The position numbers were made by a program, and so were the translations under genes. From a virus (lineage: Duplodnaviria > Heunggongvirae > Uroviricota > Caudoviricetes): 17,922 bases of DNA. Location of the stretch: IMG/VR virus record IMGVR_UViG_2526164632_000023; one strand, 5' to 3'. The notes under the pieces are model-generated. The model made no database searches and was not told where the DNA came from. It saw only the letters and a program-made list of their open reading frames with translations. Of this stretch, positions 3,809 to 17,385 are shown one piece after another (positions within the stretch are counted from its first letter, which is position 1; each line of letters opens with the position of its first letter).

Positions 3809-4096
3809 ATGAAACAGAAAATTTCTGGCTTTACTGCCAGCGGCCCCGCTCGGCCTGAAATCCGCCCCGGCGATATTTTCCGGGATAACTATGGCGGCAC
3901 GGTAACGATAAAAGGCGTGGTAGAACGGCACATTACTTACCGCCGTGAAGGTTATGAATATGACTGCGTGATGCCTGTTTATCAGTTCCGGCGTGATTTC
4001 ACGCTGGTGGGCCATCGTAAAGCCGTAAATCAGAAACGTGCAGCAAGTCATATCCGCAAAATTCGTGAAATGCTGGTCGCAGGGGGTAAAAAATGA
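3809..4096 (+). CDS. Hypothetical protein (95 aa), translationally coupled to the replication ATPase
   Basis: Stop overlaps the start of the 4093 ORF (ATGA). Confidence 0.5.
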   Translation: MKQKISGFTASGPARPEIRPGDIFRDNYGGTVTIKGVVERHITYRREGYEYDCVMPVYQFRRDFTLVGHRKAVNQKRAASHIRKIREMLVAGGKK

Positions 4097-5499
4097 AACT
4101 GGCACCGAACGTAAAACTGTTACCGAAAGATAAACACACTGAGGCGGTTATTTTTGCGGGTGATAATGCTCACTCCTTTGCAGAACATTACATGATTGCA
4201 CAGGCCAAAAAAGCAGGCGATCCCATCCCTCCGGTTTACCTGGGCCGTTATCAGTTAAGCGAACTGGACAACCTGCAGATTGTTGATGAGGGGCGATACA
4301 GGGTAACGGTGATACGCGCCGGAAATATTGACGAAGCGCAGCTGTTAACCATAGCGACAAAACTGGCGATCGCCGGAGTCCAGGAAGCGCGGCTGCTTTC
4401 TGAAAACTTCGAATTACTGGAGAAATGGACCGACCAGCTTCCACGGCTACGGGAGACATGGGAGAGAGGGGAAAGCCTGATCATGAACGGAGGAAAACAA
4501 AAAATCACGCTACCGATTTCATGGGGTTCTGAGGGATTCGACGCGCAGCAAAGCTACGTAATTAAGGGGCTTATTCCGGCTGAATCATTATGCAGCACCT
4601 ACGGGGCCAGCGGTTCTTATAAATCGTTCCTGGCTATTTCCTGGTCGTGCCATGTTGCCACAGGTATGGCATGGGGAGGCCGCAGGGTAAGTAAGGGCGC
4701 GGTTATCTATATCGCTGGCGAAGGCAGTATGGGCGTAAAACGCCGCGTTAAGGCGTGGGAGATAACCCACGACAAGGTGGTTACGGATTTGTGCATCGTT
4801 AACGCGCCTGTCTTCCCTGCATCGCCTGACTATGTGGAGCAGGTTATCAGGACTGCCGGACTTGTTAAGAGCAGAACGGGCGAAAATGTGCGGCTGATTG
4901 TGATCGACACGCTGGCCCGTTGCTTTGGTGGGAATGATGAAAATGATTCCCGTGATATGGGCGCATTTATCCAGGGGTGTGACGCGATAAAGCAGGCCAC
5001 AGGGGCCACGGTACTGGTGGTTCACCATTCCGGCAAGGATGAAACAAAGGGGGCGCGAGGTTCCAGCGCATTCCGCGCTGCACTGGATGCAGAGTACCGA
5101 ATCAGCCGGGAAAATTCAGACGTTACAGCACTGGTGGCGGCGTGTACGAAGATGAAAGACGCAGAGGAGCCAAAAGAGAGCGCATACGACCTTAAAAGCG
5201 TGGAGGTGTTTACCGATACCGATGGCGAAGAGATTGTGTCCATGGTGGTGATTGACGTTCCCCGCGCCCCTGCTGAACTGGAGCGCATAGAGGAGGCCGG
5301 GAACAAGACGGAAAATCACACGGCTTTATGGGGTTGTATCCGGTCACGTATACAGCATGGTGATAAATGCACGATCCCGCTGCTACGTGATGACATGAAA
5401 AAGCTGGGATATGACACAAAACACCTTAAACGATGGTTAGCCAAACTGGAAAAAGACGGCGTGATTTGCGTCGATGGGGATGATGTTCACCCACTGTAA
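4093..5499 (+). CDS. Replication initiator / RecA-fold AAA ATPase (RepA-like helicase, AAA_25-type) of the island
   Basis: 468 aa. Walker A GASGSYKSFLAISW, Walker B LIVIDTLARCFGG, VLVVHHSGKDETKGARGSSA motif typical of RepA-like helicases; followed directly by an iteron array. Confidence 0.8.
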   Translation: MKLAPNVKLLPKDKHTEAVIFAGDNAHSFAEHYMIAQAKKAGDPIPPVYLGRYQLSELDNLQIVDEGRYRVTVIRAGNIDEAQLLTIATKLAIAGVQEARLLSENFELLEKWTDQLPRLRETWERGESLIMNGGKQKITLPISWGSEGFDAQQSYVIKGLIPAESLCSTYGASGSYKSFLAISWSCHVATGMAWGGRRVSKGAVIYIAGEGSMGVKRRVKAWEITHDKVVTDLCIVNAPVFPASPDYVEQVIRTAGLVKSRTGENVRLIVIDTLARCFGGNDENDSRDMGAFIQGCDAIKQATGATVLVVHHSGKDETKGARGSSAFRAALDAEYRISRENSDVTALVAACTKMKDAEEPKESAYDLKSVEVFTDTDGEEIVSMVVIDVPRAPAELERIEEAGNKTENHTALWGCIRSRIQHGDKCTIPLLRDDMKKLGYDTKHLKRWLAKLEKDGVICVDGDDVHPL

Positions 5500-5700
5500 A
5501 AAGTGGGCGTTAAAAGTGGGAATAGTGGGTAATTTAACTGGAATTTAACAAAATCGCCCACTTTCCCACGTGTATACATCCCAAAAAGTGGGCACTAAAA
5601 AAATTCTTATGAAACAGCACGATATAAAACCACAAAATCCCAGGTGGGACGAAGTGGGAAACCATGAAAAGTGGGTAGAAAAAGTGGGCACAGGTGGGCG
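5490..5700. repeat. Iteron array (about 10 copies of (A/G)GTGGG, mostly as AAAAGTGGGNA, two inverted), candidate replication origin
   Basis: Read directly: AGTGGG at 5502, 5515, 5524, 5587, 5653, 5670, 5683; GGTGGG at 5643, 5693; inverted CCCACT at 5490 and 5557. Immediately downstream of the rep gene. Confidence 0.6.
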
Positions 5701-5701
5701 C

Positions 5702-5953
5702 ATGACCAGAAAAACCAGAGATAAGACAACACCAAAATATCGCGCATTAGACATGACAGAGCACGCCTTAAAGGTGGCAATCAGAACGATAGACCGCCAC
5801 GCCGGAGAAGGATACGCGAAAGCACATCCCGAACTGATAAGCGCATTCATGATCACGGCGGCGGCAAATTTTGCCACACTGACAGAACGGGAGATTGCCG
5901 AAGCGGAACAGGTGACAACCATCAACGTTAAAACCGGAGAGCAGACAGCATGA
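5702..5953 (+). CDS. Hypothetical protein (83 aa)
   Basis: Start moved to ATG 5702, just past the iterons; the ORF-track N-terminal 44 aa would be translated through the repeat array. Stop overlaps the ssb start (ATGA). Confidence 0.45.
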   Translation: MTRKTRDKTTPKYRALDMTEHALKVAIRTIDRHAGEGYAKAHPELISAFMITAAANFATLTEREIAEAEQVTTINVKTGEQTA

Positions 5954-6375
5954 CAGCACAGATAGCGGCTTACGGGCGGCTGGTGGCTGACCCGCAGCTA
6001 AAGACCACCAGCAAAGGGACACAAATGGCGATGGCGAGTATGGCGGTTCCCCTGCCATGCAGCCAGGCAGATGACGGAACGGCGACGATGTGGTTATCTG
6101 TCCTGGCGTTTGGCAGACAGGCCGACGCACTGGCAAAACACCACAAAGGCGAACTGGTGAGCGTGGCGGGTAACATGCAGGTGAGCCAGTGGACAGGCCA
6201 GAACGGGGAAACGCGGCAGGGCTGGCAGGTTATTGCAGACAGCGTAATCAGTGCGCGAACGGCGCGACCGGGCGGCAAAAAAGGTCAACAGGGCCAGGCC
6301 ACTGACGCACTGAACAGGGCAAAACAACAGACAAGCCAGCACGATGACCCGTACGGGGATAACATACCGTTTTAA
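5950..6375 (+). CDS. ssb: Single-stranded DNA-binding protein
   Basis: 141 aa; OB-fold-like N-terminal region, Gly/Gln-rich linker, acidic C-terminal tail ending DDPYGDNIPF (canonical SSB tail ends DDDIPF). Confidence 0.8.
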   Translation: MTAQIAAYGRLVADPQLKTTSKGTQMAMASMAVPLPCSQADDGTATMWLSVLAFGRQADALAKHHKGELVSVAGNMQVSQWTGQNGETRQGWQVIADSVISARTARPGGKKGQQGQATDALNRAKQQTSQHDDPYGDNIPF

Positions 6376-7229: not shown

Positions 7230-7264
7230 CAGGTTTTGTAAATTATTTGTTCGTGGTTGTTCCA

Positions 7265-7272
7265 GGTTGTTC
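7265..7272. repeat. Target-site duplication (left copy) GGTTGTTC
   Basis: Identical 8-mer directly abuts both IS ends (7265-7272 and 9976-9983). Confidence 0.8.
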
Positions 7273-7357
7273 GTAAGCGCATCATTTAAACCGTCTTTCG
7301 CCTCCCTTTCCTGTTTCCGATACTAATGTCCATTTTCGCAGTAAAAGGACATTTAAG

Positions 7358-8008
7358 ATGAATGCACGAAAAGCGGTACTGGCAGATAATCCAGAATTGA
7401 TCCTGCGTGTGCTACAGCTGAGATTTGACGAGTCACTGTCGTACCCGCGCATTTCTGCGCAGACTGGTGTCAGCAAAACCGCCATTTTTTCTCTGGTGAG
7501 GCGATTTCACCAGGTATTCACTGACTGGCCTCTTTCCGGTGAATATTCCTGCGGGCAACTGGCCCGGGCTCTTTTCCCGGGGCGATACCCTTCAGCCCCG
7601 ACCGTGACTCAGCCTGTGAAAGCAGAGAAACCCCGCCGGAACCGATTTTCACCGGAGTTTAAATGGAGACTGGTTCAGCAAACTCTTTTACCCGGTGCCT
7701 GTGTCGCACAAATAGCTCGAGAGAATGGAATTAACGATAACCTGCTCTTTAACTGGCGGCATCTCTGGCGTAACGGTGGCCTGCAACCGCCCGGCGAACA
7801 TGAAACATCGCTACTTCCCGTGACGTTAACTCCGGAGCCGGATAATAAAATCCCGGCACCAGTGCAGATACCTGAACAGATAAATACACTGCCAGACAGT
7901 CTGTGCTGCGAGCTGGTTCTGCCGGCCGGAACTCTCAGGCTGAAAGGTGAACTGACACCGGCGTTATTACAGACACTTATCCGCGAAATGAAAGGGAGCA
8001 GCCACTGA
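7358..8008 (+). CDS. tnpA: IS66-family accessory protein TnpA (orfA)
   Basis: 216 aa with HTH-like N-terminus; position and sequence typical of IS66 orfA; stop overlaps the tnpB start. Confidence 0.8.
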   Translation: MNARKAVLADNPELILRVLQLRFDESLSYPRISAQTGVSKTAIFSLVRRFHQVFTDWPLSGEYSCGQLARALFPGRYPSAPTVTQPVKAEKPRRNRFSPEFKWRLVQQTLLPGACVAQIARENGINDNLLFNWRHLWRNGGLQPPGEHETSLLPVTLTPEPDNKIPAPVQIPEQINTLPDSLCCELVLPAGTLRLKGELTPALLQTLIREMKGSSH

Positions 8009-8355
8009 TGATATCTCTCCCTGCCGGTTCGCGTATCTGGCTGGTTGCCGGTATCACCGATATGCGAAATGGCTTTAACGGCCTGGCCTCAAAAGTTCAG
8101 AACGTCCTGAAGGATGACCCGTTCTCCGGGCATCTGTTCATCTTCCGCGGACGCCGGGGTGACCAGATAAAAGTGCTGTGGGCTGACAGTGACGGACTGT
8201 GCCTCTTCACCAAACGCCTGGAGCGGGGCCGCTTCGTCTGGCCGGTCACCCGCGATGGAAAGGTTCACCTTACTCCGGCTCAGTTGTCCATGCTTCTCGA
8301 AGGCATCGACTGGAAGCACCCGAAACGAACGGAACGCGCTGGCATCCGCATATAA
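8008..8355 (+). CDS. tnpB: IS66-family accessory protein TnpB (orfB)
   Basis: 115 aa, MISLPAGSRIWLVAGITDMRNGFNGLA...LWADSDGLCLFTKRLERGRF is the conserved IS66 orfB signature. Confidence 0.9.
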   Translation: MISLPAGSRIWLVAGITDMRNGFNGLASKVQNVLKDDPFSGHLFIFRGRRGDQIKVLWADSDGLCLFTKRLERGRFVWPVTRDGKVHLTPAQLSMLLEGIDWKHPKRTERAGIRI

Positions 8356-8374
8356 CCCGTTGTAAAGTGAGGAT

Positions 8375-9945
8375 ATGGACACCTCACTTGCTCATGAGAA
8401 TGCCCGCCTGCGGGCACTGTTGCAGACGCAACAGGACACCATCCGCCAGATGGCGAAATACAACCGCCTGCTCTCACAGCGGGTGGCGGCTTATGCTTCC
8501 GAAATCAACCGGCTGAAGGCGCTGGTTGCGAAACTGCAGCGCATGCAGTTCGGTAAAAGCTCAGAAAAACTTCGCGCTAAAACCGAACGGCAGATACAGG
8601 AAGCACAGGAGCGAATCAGCGCACTTCAGGAAGAAATGGCGGAAACGCTGGGTGAGCAATATGACCCGGTACTGCCATCCGCCCTGCGCCAGTCTTCAGC
8701 CCGTAAACCGTTACCGGCCTCACTTCCCCGTGAAACCCGGGTCATCCGGCCGGAAGAGGAATGCTGCCCGGCCTGTGGTGGTGACCTCAGTCCTCTGGGG
8801 TGTGATGTGTCAGAGCAACTGGAGCTTATCAGCAGCGCCTTTAAGGTTATCGAAACACAACGTCCGAAACTGGCCTGTTGTCGGTGCGACCATATCGTGC
8901 AGGCAACAGTACCTTCAAAACCCATTGCACGCAGTTATGCCGGAGCGGGGCTTCTGGCCCATGTTGTTACCGGGAAATATGCAGACCATCTGCCGTTATA
9001 CCGCCAGTCAGAAATATACCGTCGCCAGGGCGTGGAGCTGAGCCGCGCCACGCTGGGGCGCTGGACAGGTGCCGTTGCTGAACTGCTGGAGCCGCTGTAT
9101 GACGTCCTGCGCCAGTATGTGCTGATGCCCGGTAAAGTCCATGCTGATGATATCCCCGTCCCGGTCCAGGAGCCGGGCAGCGGTAAAACCCGGACCGCCC
9201 GGCTGTGGGTCTACGTCCGTGATGACCGTAACGCCGGTTCGGAAATGCCCCCGGCGGTCTGGTTCGCGTACTCACCGGACCGGAAAGGTATCCATCCACA
9301 AAATCATCTGGCCGGTTACAGCGGTGTGCTTCAGGCCGATGCTTACGGTGGTTACCGGGTGTTATACGAATCCGGCAGAATAACGGAAGCCGCGTGTATG
9401 GCTCATGCCCGGAGAAAAATCCACGATGTGCATGCAAGAGTGCCCACCGACATCACCACGGAAGCCCTGCAGCGTATCGGTGAACTGTATGCCATAGAGG
9501 CAGAATCCGGGGATGTACAGCAGAACAGCGTCTGGCGGCAAGAAAAGCCAGAGCTGCGCCACTGATGCAGTCACTGTATGACTGGATACAGACTCAGATG
9601 AAAACACTGTCGCGTCACTCGGATACGGCAAAAGCGTTCGCATACCTGCTGAAACAGTGGGATGGCCTGAACGTGTACTGCAGTAATGGCTGGGTGGAAA
9701 TCGACAACAACATCGCAGAGAACGCCTTACGGGGAGTGGCCGTAGGCCGGAAAAACTGGCTGTTCGCGGGTTCCGACAGCGGTGGCGAACATGCGGCGGT
9801 GTTGTACTCGCTGATCGGCACATGCCGTCTGAACAATGTGGAACCAGAAAAATGGCTGCGTTACGTCATTGAGCATATCCAGGATTGGCCGGCAAACCGG
9901 GTACGCGATCTGTTGCCCTGGAAAGTTGATCTGACCTCTCAGTAA
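8375..9945 (+). pseudogene. tnpC: IS66-family transposase TnpC, split by an apparent 1-nt frameshift near 9500-9510
   Basis: ORF 8375-9565 has the leucine-zipper N-terminus, CPACGG...CCRC zinc-finger motif and DDE core; ORF 9565-9945 in another frame carries the conserved C-terminus [26 protein letters not shown]. The second frame is open back to 9484, so the shift lies in 9484-9565. Confidence 0.8.
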
Positions 9946-9975
9946 ATATCAATACGGTTCTGGCGAGCCGCTTAC

Positions 9976-9983
9976 GGTTGTTC
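9976..9983. repeat. Target-site duplication (right copy) GGTTGTTC
   Basis: See left copy at 7265-7272. Confidence 0.8.
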
Positions 9984-10177
9984 GGTGATTCTGGCTGATG
10001 TTTACATACTGATTTTTATGTATATGTTGGCGTGTGGCACTCAGACGTGAGCCGCCACAATGCCGCCTGACCCCCTGCGCGATGCCGGGTTGATCTGCGA
10101 GATGCCGAGAGTGTCGGGCGGCGCTCCCCCCGTGTTGGTTTCACGTCCTGAATCTTAACCAATGCGAGAAAACATTC

Positions 10178-13884: not shown

Positions 13885-14053
13885 ACAGGAGCAAACCAGG
13901 CTGATACGTGGACTGATAAGGCAGCGTGACTTATGGAAGACACAGGAGACAGGGCACAAAGCCAACAGGACAGGGCGCACAAAACGCACCACAGCGAAGC
14001 GATTAACCGACCGTGACCGCGAGGTCATGGAATGTTTTCGCAATCGCTGGTGA
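13868..14053 (+). CDS. Small Arg/Thr-rich hypothetical protein (about 61 aa)
   Basis: In-frame ATGs at 13868/13874/13877 overlapping the HNH stop; MAMMTEQEQTRLIRGLIRQRDLWKTQETGHKANRTGRTKRTTAKRLTDRDREVMECFRNRW. Could be spurious. Confidence 0.25.
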   Translation: MAMMTEQEQTRLIRGLIRQRDLWKTQETGHKANRTGRTKRTTAKRLTDRDREVMECFRNRW

Positions 14054-16422: not shown

Positions 16423-16457
16423 CTTACCACTGGAAGAAGCCGGAGCGGTTGCGGCGG

Positions 16458-16650
16458 TAACTGGTTGATATTTTCGAAATTCGCCAGCGGCGAACATCGG
16501 GGAAACCAGCCTAACCCGTTGATATTTTCGGGAACAGCCAACGGCTGAGGCCGGATCAACCGACTATCTTTCAGATAGTCACAAACTACGAAATTTTCAC
16601 AGTTTAATTACTCGCCAGCTTAATCGCTAACTCACTGATATTTTCGGAAA
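16458..16650. repeat. Three direct copies of a ~20-bp unit TAAC(N4)TGATATTTTCG(R)(R)AA, with a fourth partial copy at 16767-16779
   Basis: Exact 11-mer TGATATTTTCG at 16466-16476, 16520-16530 and 16636-16646; 15-mer GCCTAACCCGTTGAT at 16509-16523 and 16765-16779; palindrome GACTATCT-TTC-AGATAGTC at 16562-16580. Confidence 0.6.
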
Positions 16651-16790
16651 CCTCGATTTGAGGAGACCGGAACGTCTACATGGCTGCATCACCATAACGA
16701 TGATTTAGCCCACCAGCAACCATAACGATTTCCGTTACAGTTGATGTGCTTTTTTGCTGGTAAGGCCTAACCCGTTGATTCTTCCACAAT

Positions 16791-16848
16791 CCCCCATTGG
16801 GGGAGGCTGGACGGCCTGCTGTGGGCTTTTCCACCATTGGTGGAAAAG
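16791..16848. repeat. Two palindromes centred on CCA-T-TGG (CCCCCATTGGGGG and CTTTTCCACCATTGGTGGAAAAG)
   Basis: Read directly: 6-bp arms at 16791-16803 and 11-bp arms at 16826-16848, each around a single central T. Confidence 0.5.
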
Positions 16849-17385
16849 TGGCGCGACTACAGGGCTGGATCATCAATATGGTGACGCAGCAACAGAGTGA
16901 CCATTAGTCACCTTGTTCTAACTCGCTGTATTCGTTTAATTTCCACCAACTGCGGAAATTGAGAAACTCACCCGCCAGATTCTGAATGGTGAAAATCACC
17001 GGGGATCTGAATAGGCATTTCCTCTATGGAGGTCGCACCGTTTTCGGGAGAAGGTGCGATCATGTTCGTCATACCGGTTCCGTTGAAATGAAATAGCCTT
17101 GTATGGGCATCATCACCATGCAGGGGATCAAAATCTCTGTAGCTTCATGTTGCCGGGACCGCCAGCCTCGCCAAATTTTTGCGTTTGTGAAAAACGAAAA
17201 TTATTACGTGCTTTGCCCTCTCCTGTTTCTGATGTTGTATACTCGCGGCCTTCTAATTGTGCTGGTGCTTTTTTGAGATTGTGGCGCTGTGTATCGATCC
17301 GTATATCATTCGGTGTATCACTTTTGATAAATTGCTACGTGTGAATTTGTTTTTAACTGACAAAAATCAGTGAGTTATGTGAATT

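Follow-up and report, generated by a model that had tools for sequence, protein, structure and literature searches.

The 17,922-nt stretch of viral DNA analysed here (hereafter the window, to which all coordinates refer) carries a capsid-forming satellite of the phage-inducible chromosomal island (PICI) type, an Escherichia coli island located between gcd and hpt. An array of short repeats (iterons) directly follows the predicted initiator-helicase gene of this island, rep, and is very probably the origin from which the satellite replicates. The array is read as a Rep-binding origin because Rep has a C-terminal winged-helix domain in which His444 caps what is predicted to be the recognition helix, and because this residue co-varies with the iteron word. 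A sequence-only reading of the window had already suggested an origin from the order of rep and iterons, and this suggestion is now supported by a design found at 74 loci, by the residue co-variation, by the joint divergence of the winged-helix coding stretch and the array between close relatives, and by its likeness to the published plan of PICI origins.

The word RGTGGG occurs 33 times in the window, as compared with 16.0 +/- 4.1 times in shuffled sequences, and 11 of these 33 copies lie inside 5490-5698. When both strands are counted, this segment holds 12 copies of GTGGG per 210 bp, 11 of them exact RGTGGG, whereas in 1000 Markov-1 simulations the maximum per 210 bp averaged 3.1 copies and never rose above 6. 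These counts confirm the cluster that had been noticed after the RepA-like gene as about ten copies of (A/G)GTGGG; the accompanying statement that most copies have the long form AAAGTGGG did not stand, as only 6 of the 12 do. The six AAAGTGGG words of the window (0.69 expected) are all within 5500-5688, and neither the RGTGGG nor the AAAGTGGG counts revealed a second GTGGG cluster in the window. The array was not reported by Tandem Repeats Finder because its spacing is irregular. No structured RNA was found in the array with Rfam, no sigma-70-like promoter was found in or beside it, and a terminator-like site appeared at chance level only. Matches to the DnaA box were absent from 5490-5700 even when one mismatch was allowed, and matches to the consensus of integration host factor (IHF) were absent from the array. 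The folding of the array as a single strand (z = -2.4) is accounted for by pairing between inverted and direct iterons and was not counted as support for a hairpin origin. A DNA search of a phage collection gave essentially no matches.

The nine direct GTGGG copies are found at 5503, 5516, 5525, 5588, 5644, 5654, 5671, 5684 and 5694, and the three inverted ones at 5490, 5557 and 5565, with an iteron core of 5-8 nt and a spacing of 9-17 nt. The left half of the array opens with a block of three direct AGTGGG iterons on the plus strand (5502, 5515 and 5524; block 5502-5529), the first of them 3 nt past the rep stop, and every relative has iterons at these three positions, spelled in the word of its locus. 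They are followed by a short AT-rich spacer (5533-5556, 75% A+T), by two inverted iterons CCCACTTTCCCAC on the minus strand (5557-5569), by the alternating pyrimidine-purine element TGTATACA (5571-5578) and by a sixth, direct iteron (5587-5592, plus strand), identified by word count and conserved position, that closes this half. The position of the inverted pair is conserved, and its word becomes CTCAC in loci of the GTGAG class, whereas TGTATACA is independent of iteron class and invariant across the E. coli relatives; it may be a site of duplex bending or of the onset of melting. A central iteron-free spacer of 45 bp (5598-5642, 71% A+T), where, by the model of Staphylococcus aureus pathogenicity island (SaPI) origins (PMC9371898), the DNA presumably unwinds, then separates the left half from a right block of five direct plus-strand iterons (5643, 5653, 5670, 5683 and 5693; block 5643-5698), also identified by word count and conserved positions. 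Two inverted copies had been counted in the sequence-only reading. The one at 5557 was borne out; the copy at 5490-5495 (minus strand) lies within the last rep codons (His-Pro-Leu-stop) and has not been retained as an iteron in the relatives L002, L003, L004 and L005, whether these share the class of the window or not, and it is therefore discounted here as probably a coding coincidence rather than a functional iteron. The second member of the real inverted pair, the CGTGGG at 5565, had been missed because it falls outside the RGTGGG rule. With the 5490 copy set aside, the array comprises about 11 iterons, six in the left half and five in the right.

The 202-bp gap between the rep stop (5499) and the next start (5702) is non-coding and filled by the array. 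The first gene past the array is a small conserved open reading frame (ORF) of 83 amino acids on the plus strand (5702-5953, PHROG 1231). The first position of the PHROG 1231 profile aligns at residue 45 of the ORF that can be opened at 5570, which is the ATG at 5702, and the same ATG was annotated by RefSeq in an island that is identical over that stretch. In the relatives, the in-frame extension upstream of 5702 is closed by stops after only 2-25 codons. Therefore, the start proposed earlier at 5702 holds, and a coding extension from the GTG at 5570, that is, the translation of 5570-5701 as part of a conserved protein, which had been named as an observation that would speak against an origin, was rejected. 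As a separate observation, the last iteron in the form AGGTGGG (5692-5698) ends 3 nt 5' of the ATG, at the expected ribosome-binding site, so that the iteron word puts a constraint on the translation signal of the small ORF as well.

The design of the array was found to be conserved while its word is not. In five E. coli relatives (76-80% identity), the gap of about 200 bp and the positions and orientations of the repeats are the same. The word itself differs, all copies of a locus changing as a set: L003 shares GTGGG with the window, L002 and L004 have GTGAG, and L005 and L006 have GTGGGGA. A further 80 loci were fetched from a one-genome-per-species collection, covering many genera of Enterobacterales and two marine gammaproteobacteria (a metagenome-assembled genome of Oceanospirillaceae and Candidatus Njordibacter). 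After the removal of two fetched loci whose contig ends before the rep stop, and with the window and L002-L006 added, 84 regions were examined. A clear array directly after rep was present in 74 loci, among them loci of Escherichia, Xenorhabdus, Pantoea, Kosakonia, Pectobacterium, Morganella, Serratia and the Oceanospirillaceae genome. The layout that recurs in these 74 loci consists of three direct copies, one or two inverted ones, a TGTATACA-like element, one direct copy, an AT-rich gap and four or five further direct copies. As medians, there are 8 copies (range 4-12), the first of them 1.5 nt past the rep stop, over a span of about 190 bp, and the largest iteron-free gap is 60 nt long with 71% A+T. 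Of the 74 loci, 64 carry an element of the form YRTATAYR (median position 65 nt past the stop), as compared with 10% of shuffled regions; unlike the iterons, it is constant across iteron classes.

The rep gene (4093-5499, plus strand) encodes a predicted initiator-helicase of 468 amino acids that matches PHROG 2850 over its full length. Its helicase core, which is of the RecA type (RepA/AAA_25), spans about residues 146-320; it is preceded by an N-terminal domain (about 1-130) and followed by a winged-helix domain at the C-terminus (about 405-468). AAA_25 (E = 4e-43) was the sole Pfam domain detected in Rep, no Rep_3 domain being present, and RSF1010 RepA (1g8y) matches residues 155-320 with E = 5e-5. 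Searches with an AlphaFold model gave matches to T7 gp4 and RadA/Rad51, in agreement with a RecA-like core, and this core dominated the fold search of the whole protein. Because that search was uninformative on the C-terminal domain, the latter was modelled and searched alone. Its approximately 62 residues have predicted local distance difference test (pLDDT) values of 77-90 in the full model and of 85 when the domain is modelled alone, and its elements (helix 407-421, strand 427, helix 428-437, helix 445-454, strand 458-461 and strand 464-467) follow the winged-helix order. Matches of the C-terminal domain in Foldseek were to DNA-binding proteins or domains of winged-helix fold, namely DtxR/IdeR, the winged helices of MCM8 and archaeal MCM, PcaR, LexA, histone H1 and FtsK-gamma. 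In the motif K-H-L-K-R-W-L, His444 directly precedes the third helix (445-454), the predicted recognition helix. The coding region of the domain (residues 397-468) occupies 5281-5496 on the plus strand, with the CAC codon of His444 at 5422-5424. Fusions of a RepA (AAA_25) core to a winged-helix domain are found in more than 2,200 database proteins, which carry generic names only. As a side observation on the other end of the protein, the N-terminal domain (residues 1-130; window 4093-4480) has a confident predicted fold (pLDDT about 76-93) and no Pfam match, and it is 46-57% identical in initiators with quite different helicase cores, namely that of the E. coli PICI EcCICFT073, of D5/SF3 type, and DUF927 proteins encoded on Klebsiella plasmids and by one Klebsiella phage. 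This domain recombines independently of the core.

The relation between Rep and the iteron word was analyzed by aligning the C-terminal 330 residues of Rep for the 69 loci with an assigned class. In normalised mutual information with iteron class, residue 444 ranks first, at 0.92 compared with 0.71 for the next of the 330 columns, and it is the only column that fully determines the variable base of the iteron. Asn accompanies GTGAG in 22/22 loci, His accompanies GTGGG in 10/10, Lys or His accompanies TGGGGG in 29/29 and Ser accompanies GTGCGGC in 8/8, so that the residue matches the variable fourth base of the GTG-N-G iteron in all 69 loci. When switches were counted on a neighbour-joining tree of the helicase core, at least nine independent changes of the variable base and at least nine of the residue 444 group were obtained, with 69/69 loci in agreement. 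A Klebsiella locus outside this set (CP018459.1) also obeys the rule, having R-K-S-F at the corresponding place, about ten copies of TGCGGC and the same layout. His422, the second His of the E. coli Reps, which is replaced by Asn in L002 and L004 of the GTGAG class, was not among the top co-varying columns across genera. The recognition helix of a winged-helix domain enters the major groove with its N-terminal end, and we infer that residue 444, at this end of the predicted helix, contacts iteron base 4. Taken together, the model and the co-variation make iteron recognition by the Rep C-terminal winged-helix domain a well supported prediction.

The same domain stands out when close relatives are compared. 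The DNA of L002 and L003 is 96-100% identical up to about Rep residue 418, and the identity drops to 71-83% over exactly the stretch that codes for the C-terminal domain and the array. Across pairwise comparisons, only the C-terminal domain of Rep tracked iteron class. The other candidate readers, which were the N-terminal domain and core of Rep, DUF4222 and the downstream ORF, do not track it and were rejected for that reason. The downstream 83-amino-acid protein is 74% identical in EcCICFT073 despite the quite different iterons of that island, which likewise argues that it is not the reader. These comparisons indicate that the winged-helix coding stretch and the iterons are inherited and exchanged as one specificity cassette, which would move as a unit because the coding stretch adjoins the iterons.

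The arrangement agrees with that of known PICI origins. The origins of Gram-negative PICIs have been placed on the 3' side of rep, where iterons in two sets flank an AT-rich region; in EcCICFT073, a rep-ori fragment allows a plasmid to be maintained, less so when the region equivalent to the array is deleted (Fillol-Salom et al. 2018, ISME J, PMC6092414). The window and EcCICFT073 have in common the position directly 3' of the initiator gene, the division of short iterons into two sets by an AT-rich region, and a scaffold made up of int, alpA, an Icd-like gene, DUF4222, the initiator gene, the origin, the small ORF and SSB, whereas of the initiator itself only the N-terminal part of about 130 residues is shared, at 46% identity. 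A text search of the supplements of PMC6092414 gave no iteron sequences and no mention of a gcd-hpt insertion site, and no test of a RepA-type core with GTGGG iterons was found in the literature, Fig. 2a of that paper not being covered. In SaPIs, according to the work of Ubeda et al. as relayed in PMC9371898, 6-12 iterons of five or six bases lie directly after rep with a central AT-rich region, and the SaPI Rep is initiator and helicase in one protein and reads the iterons with its C-terminal winged-helix domain (Qiao et al. 2022, PMC9371898). The window shows the same order of iterons directly after rep, a central AT-rich region, a predicted C-terminal winged-helix reader and a predicted combination of initiator and helicase in one protein. 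The SaPI Rep core, however, is AAA+ (SF3/MCM-like, 3'-5'), whereas that of the window Rep is of the RecA-type SF4 and related to RSF1010 RepA, and no sequence homology between the two Reps was detectable. Thus, the features known from PICI-type origins are present in the window: a non-coding location directly 3' of the initiator gene, short iterons in two sets around an AT-rich spacer and, computationally, recognition by a C-terminal winged helix (model and co-variation, 69/69 loci).

Other replicons resemble the window less closely. Its helicase core is homologous to that of the IncQ plasmid RSF1010, and both would direct initiation through iterons without DnaA boxes. In RSF1010, a separate protein, RepC, binds iterons of about 20 bp, and a dedicated primase acts at ssiA and ssiB. 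In the window, by contrast, the predicted DNA-binding domain is fused to the helicase and the iteron core is 5-8 nt; no homolog of RepC or RepB was seen among the island ORFs scanned, and an IncQ replicon was therefore rejected. The alpha protein of phage P4 combines a primase with an SF3 helicase and needs a second repeat cluster, crr, whereas the window has no second GTGGG cluster. What the two have in common is an enterobacterial satellite whose multidomain helicase has a C-terminal DNA-binding domain that reads, or in the window is predicted to read, short repeated words at the origin (PMC6092414). A Rep_3-type iteron plasmid origin (pPS10, R6K, RK2, F) was rejected as well, there being no Rep_3 domain, no iterons of about 17-22 bp and no DnaA boxes. 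The earlier reading of rep followed by iterons as the standard arrangement of satellite and plasmid origins holds, but for plasmids only loosely on this account.

By analogy with the SaPI Rep (PMC9371898), melting, self-loading and initiation at the array can be pictured as follows. Once a helper phage induces the island and the island excises, the winged-helix domains of Rep would bind the approximately 11 iterons (six left, five right), and Rep oligomers would assemble, probably one hexamer per side. This assembly would distort and melt the AT-rich spacer at 5598-5642 and/or TGTATACA, after which the Rep helicase could load itself on single-stranded DNA while the island SSB coats the opened strands. 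Priming and synthesis would be supplied by host or helper enzymes, the former presumably because no primase is evident in the island.

Several points weigh against this origin. Ten of the 84 regions remained unclassified, with too few copies of any word in the 260 bp past rep, some of these regions being frameshifted or cut short, and the class assignment is marginal in a few TGGGGG loci with 3-4 copies (L061 and L072-L074). The initiator of EcCICFT073, the only Gram-negative PICI whose origin was tested experimentally, has a D5_N/DUF5906/Pox_D5 core of the SF3 type and not an AAA_25 RepA core, and in that island the iterons read GGTAGA(C/T)A within a gap of 288 bp. In the SaPI origins relayed in PMC9371898, opposed iterons flank the AT-rich region on both sides, whereas the inverted copies of the window are confined to the left half; in some of the other loci, L008 and L079 among them, one inverted copy lies just right of the spacer. 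The Foldseek matches of the C-terminal domain are weak by E-value (0.025-0.16), with probabilities of 0.9-1.0 and TM-scores of about 0.6-0.7, and the helicase core of the Rep model is poorly predicted, with pLDDT < 50 at residues 314-396. The island has no recognisable primase. Lastly, the co-variation speaks for Rep reading the repeats and not for replication starting there. In favor of the origin, on the other hand, counts a related element of about 17 kb, the Klebsiella record CP018459.1, that was deposited as a closed circle.

The last of these objections is the starting point for the strongest of the other explanations, according to which the array is a Rep-bound operator or copy-control site only, tuning the small ORF and SSB or pairing copies of the element, while replication starts elsewhere. 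Since the co-variation concerns recognition and not initiation, it suits this explanation as well, as does the last iteron by overlapping the probable site of ribosome binding for the small ORF, and plasmid iterons commonly double as control sites. Nevertheless, we regard a purely regulatory array as improbable. No sigma-70-like promoter was found in or beside it, the two blocks around an AT-rich spacer together with the conserved TATA-like element have the design of an origin, and the window offers no second GTGGG cluster to serve as the true one; moreover, deletion of the equivalent region in the tested PICI reduced plasmid maintenance (PMC6092414). A control role could coexist with origin function.

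Alternatively, the array might be a packaging site or another site read by a different protein of the island or its helper, with DUF4222, the 83-amino-acid protein and TerS as candidates. The island has its own TerS, TerL and HNH, so that a packaging site must exist somewhere, and the small ORFs on either side of the array have no known function. However, iteron class follows the C-terminal domain of Rep and not the neighbouring genes: loci that differ in class still share 95-99% identity in DUF4222, the downstream ORF is 82-92% identical whatever the class and keeps its similarity in EcCICFT073 next to unrelated iterons, and L002 and L003 share the type of capsid-protease gene yet differ in their iterons. 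In addition, the array always adjoins rep and is far from terS, and a set of 47-nt repeats at 16455-16811 is a better candidate for packaging or attachment. This makes such a site very improbable, clearly more so than a purely regulatory one. That the array has no function at all, being either a translated N-terminal extension that uses the open frame from the GTG at 5570 into the 5702 ORF or a chance low-complexity repeat, can be practically dismissed given the stops in the relatives, the start shared by PHROG 1231 and RefSeq, the clustering far above chance and a design kept across genera while the word changes in concert.

Returning to the array as an origin, its general plan has already been published (PMC6092414, PMC9371898), and the window presents the same plan with a different helicase core, which leaves the general picture of PICI replication unchanged. 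What the analysis adds is the match of a single residue to a single iteron base, together with the apparent joint exchange of the DNA-binding domain and the origin; for satellites that are widespread in E. coli and other enterobacteria, this would show where the origin lies and what sets its specificity. We tentatively consider it possible, though short of probable, that the RepA (AAA_25)-winged-helix fusions form a distinct class of self-loading SF4 helicase-initiators, whose specificity would lie largely in one residue and be re-assorted by swaps of the domain-iteron cassette. In such a class, Asn would read A, His or Lys would read G and Ser would read C at iteron position 4. If this were true, cassette swaps could let satellites in one cell avoid replication cross-talk, and the fusions would provide a naturally programmable origin-initiator pair. 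The comparisons show that satellites combine three parts independently of one another, namely the N-terminal domain, the helicase core, and the origin along with the DNA-binding domain, and this mixing bears on the compatibility of satellites that share a cell.

The surrounding genes are those of a capsid-forming PICI (cf-PICI). The DUF4222 gene (3809-4096, plus strand; Pfam E = 1.5e-23), whose stop overlaps the rep start (ATGA), lies directly 5' of the initiator gene in all E. coli relatives and in EcCICFT073, whatever the type of initiator, and is part of a conserved replication module that is completed by the SSB gene (5950-6375, plus strand; Pfam SSB E = 4e-16; PHROG 44). Further upstream, family and profile scans identified a tyrosine integrase gene (1-1227), and this gene is directly followed by an int-alpA RNA (Rfam RF02996; 1236-1302, plus strand; 55 bits against a gathering score of 35.8), the sole Rfam match in the window; AlpA (PF05930) is encoded at 2343-2669. 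Within about 170 bp in or beside the alpA region (2605-2772) there are three GGTGGG words, none of AAAGTGGG form, a weak enrichment that is probably due to chance. Past SSB, the gene order is a ProQ/FinO protein, an IS66-family insertion, capsid, protease, portal, adaptor, HNH, TerS (terS at 14032) and TerL, and no tail or lysis genes were found before hpt. With int, alpA, a replication module, its own capsid and packaging genes and a specific chromosomal site, the window matches the cf-PICI type of about 15 kb (bioRxiv 10.1101/2022.09.08.507074). An island of an E. coli genome (L001), also between gcd and hpt, is 100% identical over window positions 4093-5953; it is without the IS66 insertion and differs from the window between int and rep. 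The IS66-family element of the window (about 7250-10000) lies between a PHROG 1957 ORF and the capsid gene, contains accessory ORFs at 7358-8008 and 8008-8355 and a transposase split into 8375-9565 and 9565-9945, and could disrupt the transcription of the packaging genes.

The repeats at 16455-16811, which lie between the last ORF of the island and hpt, consist of four copies of a unit of about 47 nt that is made up of TAAC(C/T)NNNTGATATTTTCG and a short GC-rich palindrome behind it. These units hold all three exact IHF-consensus matches of the window, and a partial inverted copy of the unit is found just before hpt (17362-17377); the set could represent packaging (cos) or attachment-arm sites. 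Finally, the Klebsiella locus mentioned above (L089) is the K. pneumoniae 'plasmid' pKp_Goe_795-4, which is circular, 16,971 bp long and non-mobilizable. It carries integrase, Rep with iterons, capsid and terminase genes, as well as an annotated tail tape-measure protein, and appears to be a complete cf-PICI-type satellite, an excised episome that was filed as a plasmid.

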